Virus record (IMG/VR): IMGVR_UViG_3300006169_000164
Location: 1-39,512 of that record
Reading direction: 5' to 3' (one strand)
Source of the DNA: a virus
Taxonomy: Duplodnaviria; Caudoviricetes
DNA: 39,512 bases
The notes under the pieces were generated by a model. The model had not been told where the DNA came from. It saw nothing but the letters and a program-made list of their open reading frames with translations, and made no database searches. The translations under genes and the position numbers were made by a program. Shown one piece after another: positions 7,796 to 28,433 of this stretch (its first letter is position 1; each line of letters starts with the position of its first letter).

Positions 7796-7865
7796 GCGCT
7801 ACCGCGCTTCGCGCTACTTGAGCGCCGGTAGCCAGTCCCGTCCTCAAGTAGCGGAGCGATAGGAC
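7796..7865. repeat. Family A palindromic repeat, inverted pair (M-L spacer)
   Basis: GCGCT-ACC-GCGC-TTC-GCGC-TACTTG-AGCGC (7796-7825) and inverted GTCCT-CAAGTA-GC-GGA-GC-GAT-AGGAC (7840-7865). Confidence 0.85.
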
Positions 7866-9701: not shown

Positions 9702-9722
9702 GGGTAACGGGGGGCGTTACCC
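9702..9722. promoter_or_regulatory. Late-promoter palindrome 2 upstream of J
   Basis: GGGTAAC-ggggggc-GTTACCC, 47 nt before the J ATG. Confidence 0.75.
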
Positions 9723-18331: not shown

Positions 18332-18352
18332 GGGTAACGGCCCGCGTTACCC
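18332..18352. promoter_or_regulatory. Late-promoter palindrome 3 upstream of W
   Basis: GGGTAAC-ggcccgc-GTTACCC, 45 nt before the W ATG. Confidence 0.75.
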
Positions 18353-19960: not shown

Positions 19961-20060
19961 GCGCTACCGCTTCGCTACTTGAGCGCGAAAATGACGCGCA
20001 AGTAACGGCAGCGGCGGCGAAGGAACAACCGCCCTCAAGTAGCCCAAAGGGCGATAGGGC
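19961..20060. repeat. Family A palindromic repeat, inverted pair (FI-FII spacer)
   Basis: GCGCT-ACC-GC-TTC-GC-TACTTG-AGCGC (19961-19986) and GCCCT-CAAGTA-GCCC-AAA-GGGC-GAT-AGGGC (20031-20060). Confidence 0.85.
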
Positions 20061-20594: not shown

Positions 20595-20661
20595 GCGCTA
20601 TCGCCTCCGGCTACTCGAGCGCGGCGGGAACACCTGCCCTCAAGTGGCGGAGCGGTAGGAC
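20595..20661. repeat. Family A palindromic repeat, inverted pair (FII-E spacer)
   Basis: GCGCT-ATC-GCC-TCC-GGC-TACTCG-AGCGC (20595-20622) and GCCCT-CAAGTG-GC-GGA-GC-GGT-AGGAC (20636-20661). Confidence 0.85.
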
Positions 20662-20781: not shown

Positions 20782-21147
20782 ATGGCCGACGCCGAAAGCG
20801 ATAGCGTGACGACAAGCGCCCTTCCCGCCAATCCCGAGTTCGCCAGCATCGCGCTGGCCACGCCGATCGCGCGCGGCGAGACCTCGATCGACACCCTCCA
20901 GCTCCGCAAGCCCAAGGCCGGCGAGCTGCGCGGGTTGTCGCTCCAGGACGTGATCACCAGCGACATCACCGCGCTGCTGACTCTGATCCCGCGCATCAGC
21001 AATCCGCCCCTGACCGGCCCCGAGGCCGACGCCCTCGACCCCGCCGACCTCGCCGAGATCGGAGGTGTGGTGCGCGGTTTTTTTATGACTTCGGCGGAGC
21101 GTCAGGTGCTCGACGCGATGATCGCGGAACAACGGCCGAGGAGCTGA
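20782..21147 (+). CDS. E: Tail assembly chaperone gpE
   Basis: AGGAG RBS; LRKPKAGELRGLSL, LIPRISNPPLT, LDPADL. Confidence 0.9.
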   Translation: MADAESDSVTTSALPANPEFASIALATPIARGETSIDTLQLRKPKAGELRGLSLQDVITSDITALLTLIPRISNPPLTGPEADALDPADLAEIGGVVRGFFMTSAERQVLDAMIAEQRPRS

Positions 21148-21275
21148 TGGCAGAGATCGCCGGCGTCTTCCACTGGCCGCTCTCCGAGCTGCAAGCGCTG
21201 TCGATCCCCGATCTGCTCGACTGGCGCGAGCGCGCGGTCACGTGGTGGAATCGCGTTCACGGTGACGGGAAATGA
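21078..21275 (+). CDS. gpE' extension produced by -1 frameshift (E+E')
   Basis: T7 run at 21078-21084 (GGT TTT TTT ATG); the -1 frame is open to TGA 21275 and encodes MAEIAGVFHWPLSEL...DWRERA. Confidence 0.85.
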   Translation, partial: FFYDFGGASGARRDDRGTTAEELMAEIAGVFHWPLSELQALSIPDLLDWRERAVTWWNRVHGDGK

Positions 21276-21421
21276 CCCGCGCGGTGCTCTCGATCAGCGA
21301 GAATGGGACCAGGATCGGCACCGCGGACGGCGGTGTCGCAAGCGCGAACGCGCGCCGGCCGGTCAGGCCGAAGCCAAGCGGCCCGGATGGGCCGCGCCCG
21401 GCGTTTGAGGGCGCAAGATAA
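21272..21421 (+). CDS. 49-aa mini-ORF bridging E' and T, containing family B repeat
   Basis: ATGA overlap with the E' stop and TAATG overlap with the T start; ...ASANARRPVRPKPSGPDGPRPAFEGAR. Confidence 0.5.
   Translation: MTRAVLSISENGTRIGTADGGVASANARRPVRPKPSGPDGPRPAFEGAR
21337..21414 (+). repeat. Family B 78-bp structured repeat, copy 1
   Basis: Near-identical to 24244-24321; ends 6 nt before the T start codon. Confidence 0.9.
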
Positions 21422-23607
21422 TGTCCTCCAACAAGCTCTCGCTGCTGGTCAACTTCGTCGCGGTCGACAAGCTGTCGGGCTCGCTGAAGAACATCGTCGC
21501 GCTCGGCAAGAAGGGCTCGCAATCGCTCGGCGCCCTGCGCGGCGAGGGCCGCAAGCTGGAAAGCCAGCTTCGCGCCGTGCGCAAGGAGCTGGCCAACTCC
21601 AGCGGCAACGTGACCGCGCTGATCGACCGCGAGCGCCAGCTCGAGCGCGCGATCGAAGACACCAACCAGCAGCTCGAGCGGCGCAAGCGGCTGAACGCGA
21701 TCGAGGCCGACCGGGCGCGGATGGCGGCGCGCGGCGAGGATCTGAAGCAGCGCGGACGCGAGCACGTTGCCGAAGGCGCGGCGCTGGCCGCGCCGCTGAT
21801 CCTCGCGACCGCGGCGGCGGCGCAGTTTTCCAGCGGCATGGTCGACATCCAGCAGAAAGCGGGTTTGACCAACGAGCAGGCCGACCGGCTTGGCCGGCGG
21901 ATCGTGACCATGGCGCGCGACGCCCGGCAGATGCCCGAGGACATCCGTGCCGGACTCGACCTGTTGCTCGCCAAAGGTCTGGGCCTCGACGCCGCTACCG
22001 CCGCGATCGGCCCCGCCGGTCGCCTCGCCACGGCCTACAAGGTGGAGATTCCCGACGCCGCCGACGCCGCGTTCGCCAGCCTCAACAACCTGAAGGTCGC
22101 CGCGGCGGACACCGCGCGAATTTTCGACGTGATGGCCGCCGCGGGCAACGAAGGCGGCTTCGAAGTGCGCGACATGGCGCGGCACTTCCCCGCTTTGACC
22201 GCGCAGATGCAGGCTCTCGGCAGCAAGGGCATCCCCGCCGTCGCCGACCTCTCGGCCGCGCTGCAAGTGGCGATGAACACCGCCGGCAGCGCCGACGAGG
22301 CCGGCAACAACATCGTCAACCTGCTCGCCAAGATCAACGCGCCGGGCACGATCCGCGCGTTCAAGAAGAACTTCGGCATCGACCTGCCGGCGGCGATGAA
22401 ACGGCTGACCGACCAGGGCTACAGCGCGATGGAAGCCATCGCCATGATCACCGGGAAGGCGACCGGCGGGGACATGAAGCGGCTCGGCTTCGCGTTCGAG
22501 GATCGCCAGGCGCAGATGGGCTTGCTGGCGATCATCCAGAACCTCGAGGAATATCGCCGCATCCGCGCGGCGGCGCTGACCAGCGGCGGCACGGTGGACC
22601 GCGCCTTCGACCAGCGCGTGGCGCGCGACGCGATGGTGCAGTGGAACGCCTTCAAGTCGAGCGTCTCGCAGCTCGCGATCACGCTCGGCGCGACGCTGCT
22701 GCCGGTCGCCGACCAAGTGCTCGGCATGGTCTCGGCGGTCGCCGGAAAGGTGGCCGCATGGGCGCAACGCAACCCCGAGCTGGCGGCGACGATCACGAAA
22801 GTCGTCGCCGGCCTAATCGCGTTCAAGATCGGCCTCGGCGCGGTGATGCTCGTCGCCGGCAGCATCCTCGGCCCGCTCTCGACCGGGATCGCCCTGTTCA
22901 TGAAATGGCGCGCGCTCGGCTCGCTGGCGGCGGTGTTCCCCAAGGTCGCCACCGGCATGCGGATGCTCGGCCTGGCGCTGCGTTTCATGATGGGGCCCAT
23001 TGGTTGGATCATCACCGGGGTCGGCCTGCTCGCCTATGCGGTCTATTCCAACTGGGACACCATCAAGGCCGCGTTCAATGGCGGGGTGGCCTGGGTCAAG
23101 AGGCTGCTAACCGGCCTGCCCGACTGGCTCAAGCGCGTCGGGCGGCTGATGATGCAGGGCCTGCTGCTGGCGATCAATCCGTTCGCGCTCGGCGCCAAGC
23201 TGATCAACATGGCGAAGAACGGCATCACCGCCTTCAAGAACTATCTGGGAATCAAGAGTCCGAGCCGGCTGTTCATGTCGCTCGGGCGGCACATGACCGA
23301 GGGCCTGACCCAGGGTATCGACCGCGGCGGCCGACGCGCCGTCGGCGCCATGGGCCGCGTCGCCGCCGGCGCCGCGGCGGCCGGCTCCTTCGCCCTGACG
23401 CCTCTTGCGGCTGCGAACGCTGGAGGGCCGCCTGGCGACGGACGGCCGCAGGCCGGCGGCGCGAGCCCGTGGGCGGGGCTGTCGCTGACCATCCACATCA
23501 ACCAGCAGCCCGGCGAAAGTGCCGACGCCCTGGCCGACCGCGTGGTACGCATCATCGAGCGGAAAGCCGGTGTGGCCGGGCGGCGGACGTACGAGGATGA
23601 CGCCTGA
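21421..23607 (+). CDS. T: Tape measure protein T
   Basis: 728-aa Ala-rich helical protein after E/E'; GGFEVRDMA core, hydrophobic segments, LGIKSPSRLF motif. Confidence 0.93.
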   Translation: MSSNKLSLLVNFVAVDKLSGSLKNIVALGKKGSQSLGALRGEGRKLESQLRAVRKELANSSGNVTALIDRERQLERAIEDTNQQLERRKRLNAIEADRARMAARGEDLKQRGREHVAEGAALAAPLILATAAAAQFSSGMVDIQQKAGLTNEQADRLGRRIVTMARDARQMPEDIRAGLDLLLAKGLGLDAATAAIGPAGRLATAYKVEIPDAADAAFASLNNLKVAAADTARIFDVMAAAGNEGGFEVRDMARHFPALTAQMQALGSKGIPAVADLSAALQVAMNTAGSADEAGNNIVNLLAKINAPGTIRAFKKNFGIDLPAAMKRLTDQGYSAMEAIAMITGKATGGDMKRLGFAFEDRQAQMGLLAIIQNLEEYRRIRAAALTSGGTVDRAFDQRVARDAMVQWNAFKSSVSQLAITLGATLLPVADQVLGMVSAVAGKVAAWAQRNPELAATITKVVAGLIAFKIGLGAVMLVAGSILGPLSTGIALFMKWRALGSLAAVFPKVATGMRMLGLALRFMMGPIGWIITGVGLLAYAVYSNWDTIKAAFNGGVAWVKRLLTGLPDWLKRVGRLMMQGLLLAINPFALGAKLINMAKNGITAFKNYLGIKSPSRLFMSLGRHMTEGLTQGIDRGGRRAVGAMGRVAAGAAAAGSFALTPLAAANAGGPPGDGRPQAGGASPWAGLSLTIHINQQPGESADALADRVVRIIERKAGVAGRRTYEDDA

Positions 23608-24203
23608 TGCTCCCGCCGTTCCGCGTCCCGCGACCGCCGCAACTGCCCGACATCCCTGGCCTTCCCGGCGTGACCGGGCTTCGCGATGCGGGCGGGCGGG
23701 CGGCATCGGTGGTGTTGCGCGCGCCGTCCGCGCCGCCGCGGCTGTCCGATCTGACGCTGCCGGGCGTGGCCGGGCTGCGCGATGCCGGCCCGGGCGGAAC
23801 GATCGCGCAAGCCGATTCCTCGCGCCGTCAGCTCATGACCCTCGGTCTGTTCGTGTTCGGCATGGACACCCTGCCCTACCAGGCATTGCGCCACGCGGTG
23901 GAATGGCGCCACGGCGCGACCGAGCGGCACCAGGCGCGGCCGGCGGCACAGTACCTCGGTCCCGGCGCCGAGACGATCACGCTTTCCGGCCTGCTCGTGC
24001 CCGAGATCGCGGGCAGCTTCGGTGCCTTCGACCGCCTGGTCGAGATGGGCGATAGCGGCGAGGATTATCCGCTTATGGACGGCACCGGCCGGGTGTTCGG
24101 CCACTTCCGAATCGTCAAGCTCGACCGCGACCATCACAATCCGATGGCGGGCGGTGTACCGCGGCAAGTCGGCTTCACGCTGGATCTGGAGCGCGCCGAG
24201 TGA
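23607..24203 (+). CDS. U: Tail protein U with N-terminal extension
   Basis: LMTLGLFVF, QYLGPGAETITLSG, LMDGTGRVFG; TGATG coupling to T. Confidence 0.88.
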   Translation: MLPPFRVPRPPQLPDIPGLPGVTGLRDAGGRAASVVLRAPSAPPRLSDLTLPGVAGLRDAGPGGTIAQADSSRRQLMTLGLFVFGMDTLPYQALRHAVEWRHGATERHQARPAAQYLGPGAETITLSGLLVPEIAGSFGAFDRLVEMGDSGEDYPLMDGTGRVFGHFRIVKLDRDHHNPMAGGVPRQVGFTLDLERAE

Positions 24204-24328
24204 CGAGCCACGGAGACAGGCGTTGGAACGGCCCTGCAGGGGCCGCAAGCGCGAACGCGCGTCGGCCGGTAGGCCGGAAGCCAAGCGGGCCGGACGGCCC
24301 GCGCCCGGCGTTTGAGGGCGCTAACTGA
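24200..24328 (+). CDS. 42-aa mini-ORF bridging U and D, containing family B repeat
   Basis: GTGA overlap with the U stop and TGATG overlap with the D start; ...ASANARRPVGRKPSGPDGPRPAFEGAN. Confidence 0.5.
   Translation: MTSHGDRRWNGPAGAASANARRPVGRKPSGPDGPRPAFEGAN
24244..24321 (+). repeat. Family B 78-bp structured repeat, copy 2
   Basis: Four substitutions and two compensating 1-nt indels relative to copy 1; ends 6 nt before the D start codon. Confidence 0.9.
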
Positions 24329-25323
24329 TGCCCGCGAATATCGCCGGAGTGCGGCTGTCGATCGAGGGCGGCGCCGACCTGGCCGACAAGGTCGATCCGC
24401 GCCTGGTCGAGCTGACGCTGTCCGAGAAGCGCGAGGCCGAGGCGGATGAGCTGTCGGTCACGTTGCAAAACCACGATGGCCGGCTCGCGATGCCCGAGCC
24501 CGGCGTCTCGCTGCTGCTGGCGCTCGGATGGACGAGCGGCGCGGACGTGCCTGTCGGCCTCGTCGACAAGGGCAGGTTCACGGTCGACGAGGTGGGCGCC
24601 TCCGGCCCTCCCGACGTGGTGACCATTCGCGCCCGCTCGGCCGATCTCACCGGGCTTTATCGCCAGCGCCGCACGAAGACGTGGCGCGATACGAACCTCG
24701 GTTCGGTCCTCGGCCAGATCGCCGCTCGCCACGGCCGAGGGGCGCGCATCGCCGGTGGGCTCGCCGACAGGCCGATCAAGGCGCTCGAGCAGGAAGGCAA
24801 GAGCGACATGGCCTTCGTGCGCGACCTCGGCCGGCGCTACGACGCCATCGCCACGTGGAAGGCGGGCATGCTGCTGTTCGCGCCGATCGGCCTCTCGGCG
24901 AGCTTGAGCGGGGCCGAAATGGACTCCTTCGCGCTGACCAGGCGCGACGGGTGGAGCTGGACCTTCACGCAGGCGGAGCGCGAGGCTTACGACGGCGCCG
25001 AGGCCCAGTGGCACGATCAGGGCGGCGCGCGGCGCCGGACGGTCGGCACCGGGGGCGAGAACCGCCGCAAGCTCAAGCGCGTCTATGCCAGCGAGGCCGA
25101 CGCGCGTCAGGCCGCCGAAGCCGCCGCCTCGCGCGACAAGCGGCGCCCCTATGGCTTCGAGTACGAGCTCGCGGTCGCAGATCCCGCGCTGCAGCCCGAC
25201 CAGCGCATCGCGCTGCAGGGATGGGGCGCCAAGATCGACGGCATCGAATGGCTGGTGGAAAGCGTCGAGACCACGCTCGGCGCGGGCGGATTGACGCAGC
25301 GGCTCGTGCTGGAGAGCGCTTAG
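24328..25323 (+). CDS. D: Baseplate hub / late control protein D
   Basis: EADELSVTL, LVDKGRFTVDEV, GPPDVVTIRARSAD, SDMAFVRDL. Confidence 0.92.
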   Translation: MPANIAGVRLSIEGGADLADKVDPRLVELTLSEKREAEADELSVTLQNHDGRLAMPEPGVSLLLALGWTSGADVPVGLVDKGRFTVDEVGASGPPDVVTIRARSADLTGLYRQRRTKTWRDTNLGSVLGQIAARHGRGARIAGGLADRPIKALEQEGKSDMAFVRDLGRRYDAIATWKAGMLLFAPIGLSASLSGAEMDSFALTRRDGWSWTFTQAEREAYDGAEAQWHDQGGARRRTVGTGGENRRKLKRVYASEADARQAAEAAASRDKRRPYGFEYELAVADPALQPDQRIALQGWGAKIDGIEWLVESVETTLGAGGLTQRLVLESA

Positions 25324-27951: not shown

Positions 27952-28433
27952 CCACCGCGGCGCTTTGCCCCGGCTGCTCGACCGTCGCGCCGCTCGTCGC
28001 CACATTCGCGAACGGCAGGGGGTGGCGCGACCTGTGTCGTCCGTGCGGCGACGACGGCGCCGCGGGAGCCGCGCGCGCCTACACCGGTCCTAATCCGCTA
28101 TTGCCGCGCCGCCCGATCGTCATCGGCGTGGACCTCGCCGGCGGGCCTGACTTGCACGTCGAAGCGCTCATCGATGCGGGCGGGATCGTCGCGCTCGAGG
28201 AAGCCGAGGCCGCTGCTCCCGTCCCCGCGCCGCCGCCTCCGCGCCCCGCTTCGCCGCCATTGCCCGCACCGCCGCCGCCTCCGCGCCCCGCTTCGCCGCC
28301 ATTGCCCGCACCGCCGCCGGCTCCGGCTCCTCGCGCCGAGGGCATGTCCGTCCAGCGCCGCTGCCCCTCCTGCCGCCATTGGCGCGTGACCGCCTGCGAA
28401 TATTCGCGCTGCCCGCTGAAGGTGCCCGCCTGA
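27948..28433 (+). CDS. Cys-rich protein with proline-rich linker
   Basis: CPGC..CRPC, poly-Pro duplication, CPSC..C..C; TTGA and TGATG overlaps. Confidence 0.55.
   Translation: MTTAALCPGCSTVAPLVATFANGRGWRDLCRPCGDDGAAGAARAYTGPNPLLPRRPIVIGVDLAGGPDLHVEALIDAGGIVALEEAEAAAPVPAPPPPRPASPPLPAPPPPPRPASPPLPAPPPAPAPRAEGMSVQRRCPSCRHWRVTACEYSRCPLKVPA
28230..28313 (+). repeat. Exact in-frame 42-bp tandem duplication
   Basis: ccgccgcctccgcgccccgcttcgccgccattgcccgcaccg x2 (PPPPRPASPPLPAP). Confidence 0.9.

Follow-up and report, generated by a model that had tools for sequence, protein, structure and literature searches.

A five-hairpin repeat of sphingomonad chromosomes, likely folded as single-stranded DNA, at two tail-gene boundaries of a P2-like phage

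Several classes of short structured repeats are described in bacteria. The REP, BIME and REPIN elements are GC-rich intergenic hairpins of patchy distribution, present as single units, head-to-head heterodimers and arrays, with occasional in-frame copies inside genes, in the accounts of PMC3733652 and PMC6006769. Heterodimers are typical of REP families as PMC3733652 presents them, and its passages on the CGTC REPs of Alphaproteobacteria give no dedicated transposase and no known mobiliser. The ERIC or IRU (RU-1) sequences, which are transposable elements of the miniature inverted-repeat kind (MITEs), are described as 100–130 nt long, near gene ends, with open frames able to fuse into genes and a bias for TA (PMC2229807, PMC2759123). 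Caulobacter CIR1-4 are described as alphaproteobacterial intergenic elements of about 110 nt with a multi-arm fold (PMC2229807), and the Rickettsia palindromic elements (RPE) as insertions in frame within conserved proteins. All four classes bear some likeness to the element reported here. In virus record IMGVR_UViG_3300006169_000164 of IMG/VR, analysed over its whole length of 39.5 kb (hereafter the window) and carrying P2-like head, tail and primase genes by PHROGs, a 78-nt sequence occurs twice in front of tail genes. We conclude, with a probability of about 0.72, that it belongs to a non-coding, five-hairpin alphaproteobacterial repeat, whose folded form is likely single-stranded DNA and whose two copies in this phage likely go back to separate insertions at gene boundaries.

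The two copies, at 21337–21414 (copy 1) and 24244–24321 (copy 2), differ by four substitutions and two 1-nt indels, and both stop 6 nt short of an ATG, at 21421 for gene T and 24328 for gene D (gene names E′, T, U, D, FI, FII, M and L follow P2 synteny). All of this, coordinates included, is as in the original prediction, which had taken the pair for a cassette under constraint as RNA structure and peptide at once; the observation is confirmed and its interpretation partly supported. No third copy is found in the window by covariance-model search. The element is about 100 nt long, not 78, because a further 5′ hairpin, P0, precedes each copy (Table 1) and had been missed. The unit is ordered as follows: the variable hairpin P0, GCAA, P1, P2, GAAGCCAA, P3, P4 (loop GGCGYYTGA) and an A-rich tail, with a core of 72–75 nt in addition to P0.

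The stems covary, as had been anticipated. Among 128 distinct copies, pairing in P3 reaches 97.8%, and each of its seven pairs has changed on both sides; for P1 the figures are 98.6% and two of four pairs, against 38–50% pairing in slid controls. P2 is misaligned in the model alignment (53% paired), so the evidence for it is taken from the per-copy parse. The GCGGCCC and GCGGGCC forms of P3 in the window had been read as a compensatory swap between the two copies; the stem does covary, but both forms are common alleles in host chromosomes. The last stem, P4, is real as one of 3–4 bp because its sides change length together: three C occur with at least three G in 73 copies and two C with two G in 19, while 6 are mixed. 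The 6-bp GCGCCC/GGGCGC stem in which TGAGGG had been placed occurs in only 9 of 104 copies, competes with P3, and in the window takes two of its bases from the hairpin before it.

The copies belong to a family of non-coding repeats scattered through sphingomonad chromosomes. An exact pattern made from the shared part matched 56 stretches in a species-genome collection, nearly all of them Sphingomonadales by record title, and 3 in viral contigs. The covariance model, built from 55 copies (the chance match L030 being excluded), gave 47, 40, 15, 8 and 19 matches in five sphingomonad genomes; since 150 candidates were scored in each, these are not exact copy numbers. The best distinct copies, that is, the top 114 of 131 matches with duplicates removed, form a set of 111 to which the counts below refer unless stated otherwise. 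A pattern for the 3′ half matched 16 of 151 genomes of the order, and the model 12 of 141 genomes of the phylum, three replicons of Azospirillum and Niveispirillum (Azospirillaceae) scoring 41–55 bits. Within genome G002, most of its 40 listed matches lie at about 685–1177 kb of contig C3. Of 15 loci that represent one orthologous host site, 6 hold an intact repeat and 3 a decayed one, 3 have other repeats in its place and 3 are empty.

The repeat is also present in gene transfer agent (GTA) clusters and in other phages. A pattern scan of viral sequences returned 112 stretches, chance matches to coding DNA among them (L370, L382, L385); of the first 80 loci, which were examined, many lie between virion genes and some hold tandem arrays. 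No match occurs in 50,697 annotated phage records. The arrays, of two to five diverged units with a period of about 108–170 nt, are seen in L326, L327, L394–L396 and L400 (one 47.9-kb viral contig) and in L355, L375, L378 and L399; in L375, from another P2-like phage, the element separates the sheath gene from the tube gene.

Gene calls from a simple finder that uses codon scores put 110 of the 111 copies between genes, in either orientation; the 3′ end points toward a gene on the opposite strand in 63 cases and toward one on the same strand in 38, the mode lying near 10 nt past TGAGG. Convergent stop codons attract a cluster of 3′ ends at distances of up to about 12 nt. Most of the 134 neighbouring proteins scanned are housekeeping ones (rpmH-rnpA, obgE, der-bamB, ffh, purQ, rpoA-rplQ, aminoacyl-tRNA ligases) or belong to HK97-type capsid clusters; tRNAs and GTA genes also adjoin copies. 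Seven loci (L009, L036, L043, L239, L244, L251, L257) directly adjoin tRNA genes, some apparently in rRNA spacers. Homologous copies lie in other frames and positions, an outcome that the original prediction had itself named as refuting it. Placement between genes in either orientation, mostly beside housekeeping ones, does not support the translational rheostat or the role specific to coupled tail genes first proposed. What stands of the proposed cassette is a small, structured, probably mobile element, found at junctions where the genes of related phages overlap or abut.

Head-to-head pairs are heterodimers as a rule: 26 of 32 distinct pairs combine both P1 types, as do 6 of 7 of those recovered independently of the P1 pattern. 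Units are also common singly and in tandem arrays. The outer ends of the dimers are inverted, imperfect and variable, monomers have no terminal inverted repeats, and the ends of the element vary in length and sequence.

Both copies lie in mini open reading frames (mini-ORFs), which are open and encode the peptides reported for them, running from an ATGA or GTGA overlap with the gene upstream to a TAATG or TGATG overlap with the gene downstream. In this frame each of the four substitutions is synonymous and the two indels offset one another, in line with the first reading, a cassette acting as RNA and peptide at once and tuning the translation of low-copy tail proteins. Also consistent with such a role, both spacers are bridged, for which the chance with both overlaps fixed is about 0.16 × 0.19 (about 0.03), so that double bridging is indeed somewhat unlikely by chance; the mRNA folds predicted for the window have GAGG paired at both sites; and the same frame is used by an insertion in P0001, a YaiI/DUF188 protein. 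There, 39 residues at about 58–96, absent from five orthologues, represent a stop-free, in-frame copy of the element. Across the family, however, 61 copies of the same length encode 38 different peptides in the 3′ half. In 146 close pairs the window frame shows 152 synonymous and 265 non-synonymous codon changes, the two other frames being similar, and only 8 pairs are wholly synonymous. Core lengths modulo 3 are spread over 44, 29 and 38 copies, and both halves fall in the window's single frame in 16 of 111. Against a dual constraint, too, an independent phage (L268, below) has the element at U-D with neither the bridge nor the peptide, and the five carrier genomes have no CsrA, which sets aside GGA loops of the CsrA type. 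Taken together, this makes a cassette constrained as both RNA and peptide very unlikely. The exact protein of mini-ORF 1 forms a cluster of one in the protein collection, from which that of mini-ORF 2 is absent. The shared short peptide is likely a by-product, not conserved across the family, and would be the automatic translation of a conserved DNA sequence; mini-ORF 1, likewise, is likely a by-product that was kept because coupling is preserved.

If the peptide is not the object of selection, is it the RNA or the DNA strand that folds? G·T pairs are scarce, at 9 of 827 P3 cells and 4 of 508 P1 cells, or about 1%, and A·C pairs, which are G·U on the other strand, number 5 in P3 and 0 in P1. 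On the plus strand, cGNABg loops close P1 in 97 of 110 copies and P3 in 100 of 111, P0 loops are often cGNAg (22), cGNNAg (15) or cGNNNAg (6) among 105, and P2 has 102 G·A cells as tandem G·A; none of these classes appears on the minus strand, and cUNCGg loops occur on neither. PMC2275088 describes GNA and GNAB loops closed by C-G as stable in DNA, and loop type has been used before for telling RNA from DNA motifs, as PMC2864571 reports. The fourth base of the P3 loop is A in just 1 of 121 cells, so the RNA-stable GNRA loops are avoided. The scarcity of G·T and the DNA-stable loops on one strand point to a folded single strand of DNA as the selected molecule. Thus the element likely folds as single-stranded DNA, not as the RNA originally supposed, as far as can be judged from sequence; complex folded single-stranded DNA motifs are thought rare, according to PMC5737381.

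Selection at the RNA level could still take another form, that of a signal located at gene ends and governing the stability, processing or termination of mRNA, as is reported for ERIC in Yersinia. The gathering of 3′ ends near convergent stops fits such a signal, as do the neighbouring housekeeping genes, tRNAs and GTA genes, and ERIC is described as affecting mRNA stability (PMC2229807). The repeat, however, takes both orientations relative to transcription, its P3 loops avoid GNRA, no cUNCGg is seen on either strand, and Rfam 15 has no family at the gathering threshold over the element in the window and 15 loci. We consider such a signal unlikely. The best Rfam hit, the Rhizobiales-2 RNA motif (RF01723) on the minus strand of copy 1, reaches 18.6 bits where the cut-off is 40, with E 3.2, and was rejected as not significant.

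The two junctions are tight in related phages: of 52 distinct U-D junctions, 42 overlap by 4 or 1 nt, and the E′-T spacer is −8 to +4 nt in 19 of 23. No significant model copy was found in 70 related viral loci, and among 69 further ones a single locus (L268) has the element, that is, 1 in 139 overall. This is an independent phage, with D 64% identical, which carries a dimer at U-D with different hairpins and without a bridging frame. In all three phage insertions TGAGG stands 10 nt 5′ of a start codon. The host copy L022 is nearer to each window copy (scores 70 and 66) than these are to one another (64), and the P0 hairpins differ; two insertions are therefore likelier than one duplication. 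It may be that the overlaps in the window are relics of the ancestral junctions with a duplicated stop codon, the match being exact for copy 2 and with one mismatch for copy 1.

How would a host repeat come to lie at such junctions? We propose that the repeat would be recognised as a folded DNA strand, as REP/BIME units are, and copied by a strand-transfer enzyme acting in trans. Its right end would be about 10 nt past TGAGG, and gene boundaries would be where it lands, probably at a TA. Where the tail operon is essential and coupled, an insertion would survive only if it keeps T and D translated. Since double bridging is unlikely by chance, selection probably kept such insertions, and a filter of this kind would explain both the orientation offering GAGG before the ATG and the open bridging frames found here. 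Bridging thus probably reflects a filter on which insertions survive in an essential operon, not a property of the cassette. GAGG is predicted to be open in L268, whereas it is paired in the window folds, so that re-initiation by the coupled ribosome may matter here.

The REP/BIME-like route, by a trans-acting enzyme on a folded strand, we hold, by analogy, to be an even bet. The main alternative for the spread is that the head-to-head dimer is a TA-targeting, ERIC-like MITE, mobilised by a DDE transposase acting on its outward ends, the single units being remnants. The inverted outer ends of the dimers agree with this, and abutting stops are TAA or TAG in 21 of 28 cases against 70 of 181 in the background, although this set contains orthologous sites and highly expressed genes. 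The P0001 insertion has Tyr as its first residue and a further Tyr after it, which would fit a TA duplication, as known from the protein alone. By eye, E. coli repeats (L232:456–583, L233:323–450), taken here as ERIC though not annotated as such, resemble the family in how their short motifs are ordered and in a central hairpin with tandem G·A. This likeness is not significant, since 25 and 108 of 200 shuffles reach the similarity and the model gives at most 1.8 bits over that stretch, and ERIC homology was rejected. With ends variable in length and sequence, and single units and tandem arrays common, a MITE of this type appears quite unlikely.

A different possibility is that the repeat is a DNA site useful to the host, resembling for instance a primosome-assembly or single-strand initiation signal, that is kept near core genes and that phages have borrowed. 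DNA-type loops, tandem G·A and the clustering on part of one contig of G002 would suit it. Such a site should hardly be so patchy (16 of 151 genomes of the order by pattern), nor decay or be replaced at an orthologous site, nor lack strand bias, and of the explanations considered this seems to us the least probable.

Several findings weigh against the reading that we prefer, a host repeat folded as single-stranded DNA and inserted twice. As to a mobiliser, a Y1 HUH gene (PF01797) is present in one of five carrier genomes and is not flanked by the element, the genomes being drafts in which absence is unproven. No DUF559 or GIY-YIG gene adjoins a listed match (the nearest GIY-YIG gene is 1.8 kb away), and no transposase or such nuclease is among the 134 neighbour proteins. 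As to insertion, no near-identical empty site was found, so that the ends and a target duplication are not proven; TA is lacking at the 5′ side of both window copies; and the 53 single-orientation loci show no leading- or lagging-strand bias. As to the fold, the covariation counts come from a fitted model alignment uncorrected for relatedness, the P1 loop count is inflated because that loop was part of the first search pattern, and repeats that are young and rich in GC might have few G·T pairs in any case. Finally, a pure by-product is not a full explanation of the mini-ORFs, as both window copies share the rarest register and both window spacers are bridged, against 2 of 29 other co-directional spacers when strict bridging only is counted.

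Table 1. Features around the two copies of the repeat, in window coordinates.
Feature	Position	Strand	Remarks
Small conserved ORF after the tail chaperone gene, presumably P2 E′-like	21147..21275	+	tblastn matches in related phages; gene finder
Mini-ORF 1, 49 aa, ATGA overlap to TAATG overlap	21272..21421	+	
Copy 1, hairpin P0 (variable)	21317..21337	+	
Copy 1, GCAA linker and hairpin P1 (loop GAAC)	21338..21353	+	
Copy 1, hairpin P2 (loop GGTCA)	21356..21370	+	
Copy 1, conserved linker GAAGCCAA	21370..21377	+	
Copy 1, hairpin P3 (loop GGAT)	21378..21395	+	
Copy 1, hairpin P4, conserved loop GGCGYYTGA	21396..21412	+	TGAGG 21406–21410, 10 nt 5′ of T start
Tape measure gene (T)	21421..23607	+	PHROG 28
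Tail gene, U-like, start approximate	23835..24203	+	PHROG 76
Mini-ORF 2, 42 aa, GTGA overlap to TGATG overlap	24200..24328	+	
Copy 2, hairpin P0, sequence unrelated to copy 1 P0	24230..24244	+	
Copy 2, GCAA linker and hairpin P1	24245..24260	+	
Copy 2, hairpin P2 (loop GGTA)	24263..24276	+	
Copy 2, linker GAAGCCAA	24277..24284	+	
Copy 2, hairpin P3 (loop GGAC)	24285..24302	+	
Copy 2, hairpin P4	24303..24319	+	TGAGG 24313–24317, 10 nt 5′ of D start
Tail gene, D-like	24328..25323	+	PHROG 52

Other repeats are present in the window. A second hairpin family consists of CTCAAGTAGC, a GAA-type loop, GCGRTAG, a variable closing stem and an A-rich tail. It forms three head-to-head dimers, at 7799–7862, 19964–20057 and 20598–20658, which are the M-L, FI-FII and FII-E junctions. 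There are 5 exact window matches, compared with 0 in 100 shuffles, and 6 with a looser pattern. The family is also seen in 10 of 131 related phage loci, several times at E′-T or U-D, and 5 times in genome G005, where a tandem pair (L436, G005:C1:413332-413979) lies about 380 bp from a GIY-YIG gene, a possible lead to a mobiliser; copies L439 and L440 are apparently inside coding sequence. Palindromes of the form GGGTAACG-n5-CGTTACCC precede late operons at 9702–9722 and 18332–18352, with a degenerate one at about 4603 (2 exact matches, 0 in shuffles); by comparison with P2 they are likely activator sites of late promoters. The window also contains a perfect 42-bp tandem duplication at 28228–28311.

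The case shows how repeats of a host can become established where essential phage genes overlap, and how they can give rise to spurious small-protein calls, and a dual RNA-and-peptide rheostat of tail genes gives way to an apparently undescribed repeat family. Having strong covariation, DNA-type loops, heterodimers and insertions in phages and GTAs, this family offers a tractable handle on the mobilisation of alphaproteobacterial repeats. A bolder reading, which we regard as speculative and improbable, is that it represents an undescribed class of mobile single-stranded DNA, with five DNA hairpins, a conserved recognition loop and P1-mismatched heterodimers, delivered by an enzyme to gene boundaries and keeping the next gene translated with its own GAGG. 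If true, such a class could be the alphaproteobacterial counterpart of ERIC and a route to understanding how repeats without enzymes move.

We found no description of the family in the literature searched; subscription papers, REP consensus figures, species-specific repeat lists or RepRanger tables may hold one. Compared with the systems introduced above, REPs are single palindromes of 20–40 nt, whereas the element has five hairpins in about 100 nt; only 9 of 111 copies have a GTAG or CGTC tetramer within their first 14 columns, so that the tag at the foot of REP hairpins is lacking, and no repeat-flanked TnpA-REP gene was found for it. ERIC differs in that the element is GC-rich, its monomer has no single terminal stem and its termini are not a fixed TA. 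CIRs, compared by description only, have a conserved GANTC, which is present in 0 of 111 cores and in 12 of 111 copies when P0 is included. RPEs, as they are described, have one long stem, in contrast to several short hairpins, and P0001 is the single in-frame case in a family that is almost wholly intergenic. The repeat is thus probably an undescribed variant of the small structured repeats of bacteria, sharing with REPs the heterodimers, with ERIC the length and the position near gene ends, with CIRs the multi-arm fold and with RPEs an in-frame insertion in a conserved protein.

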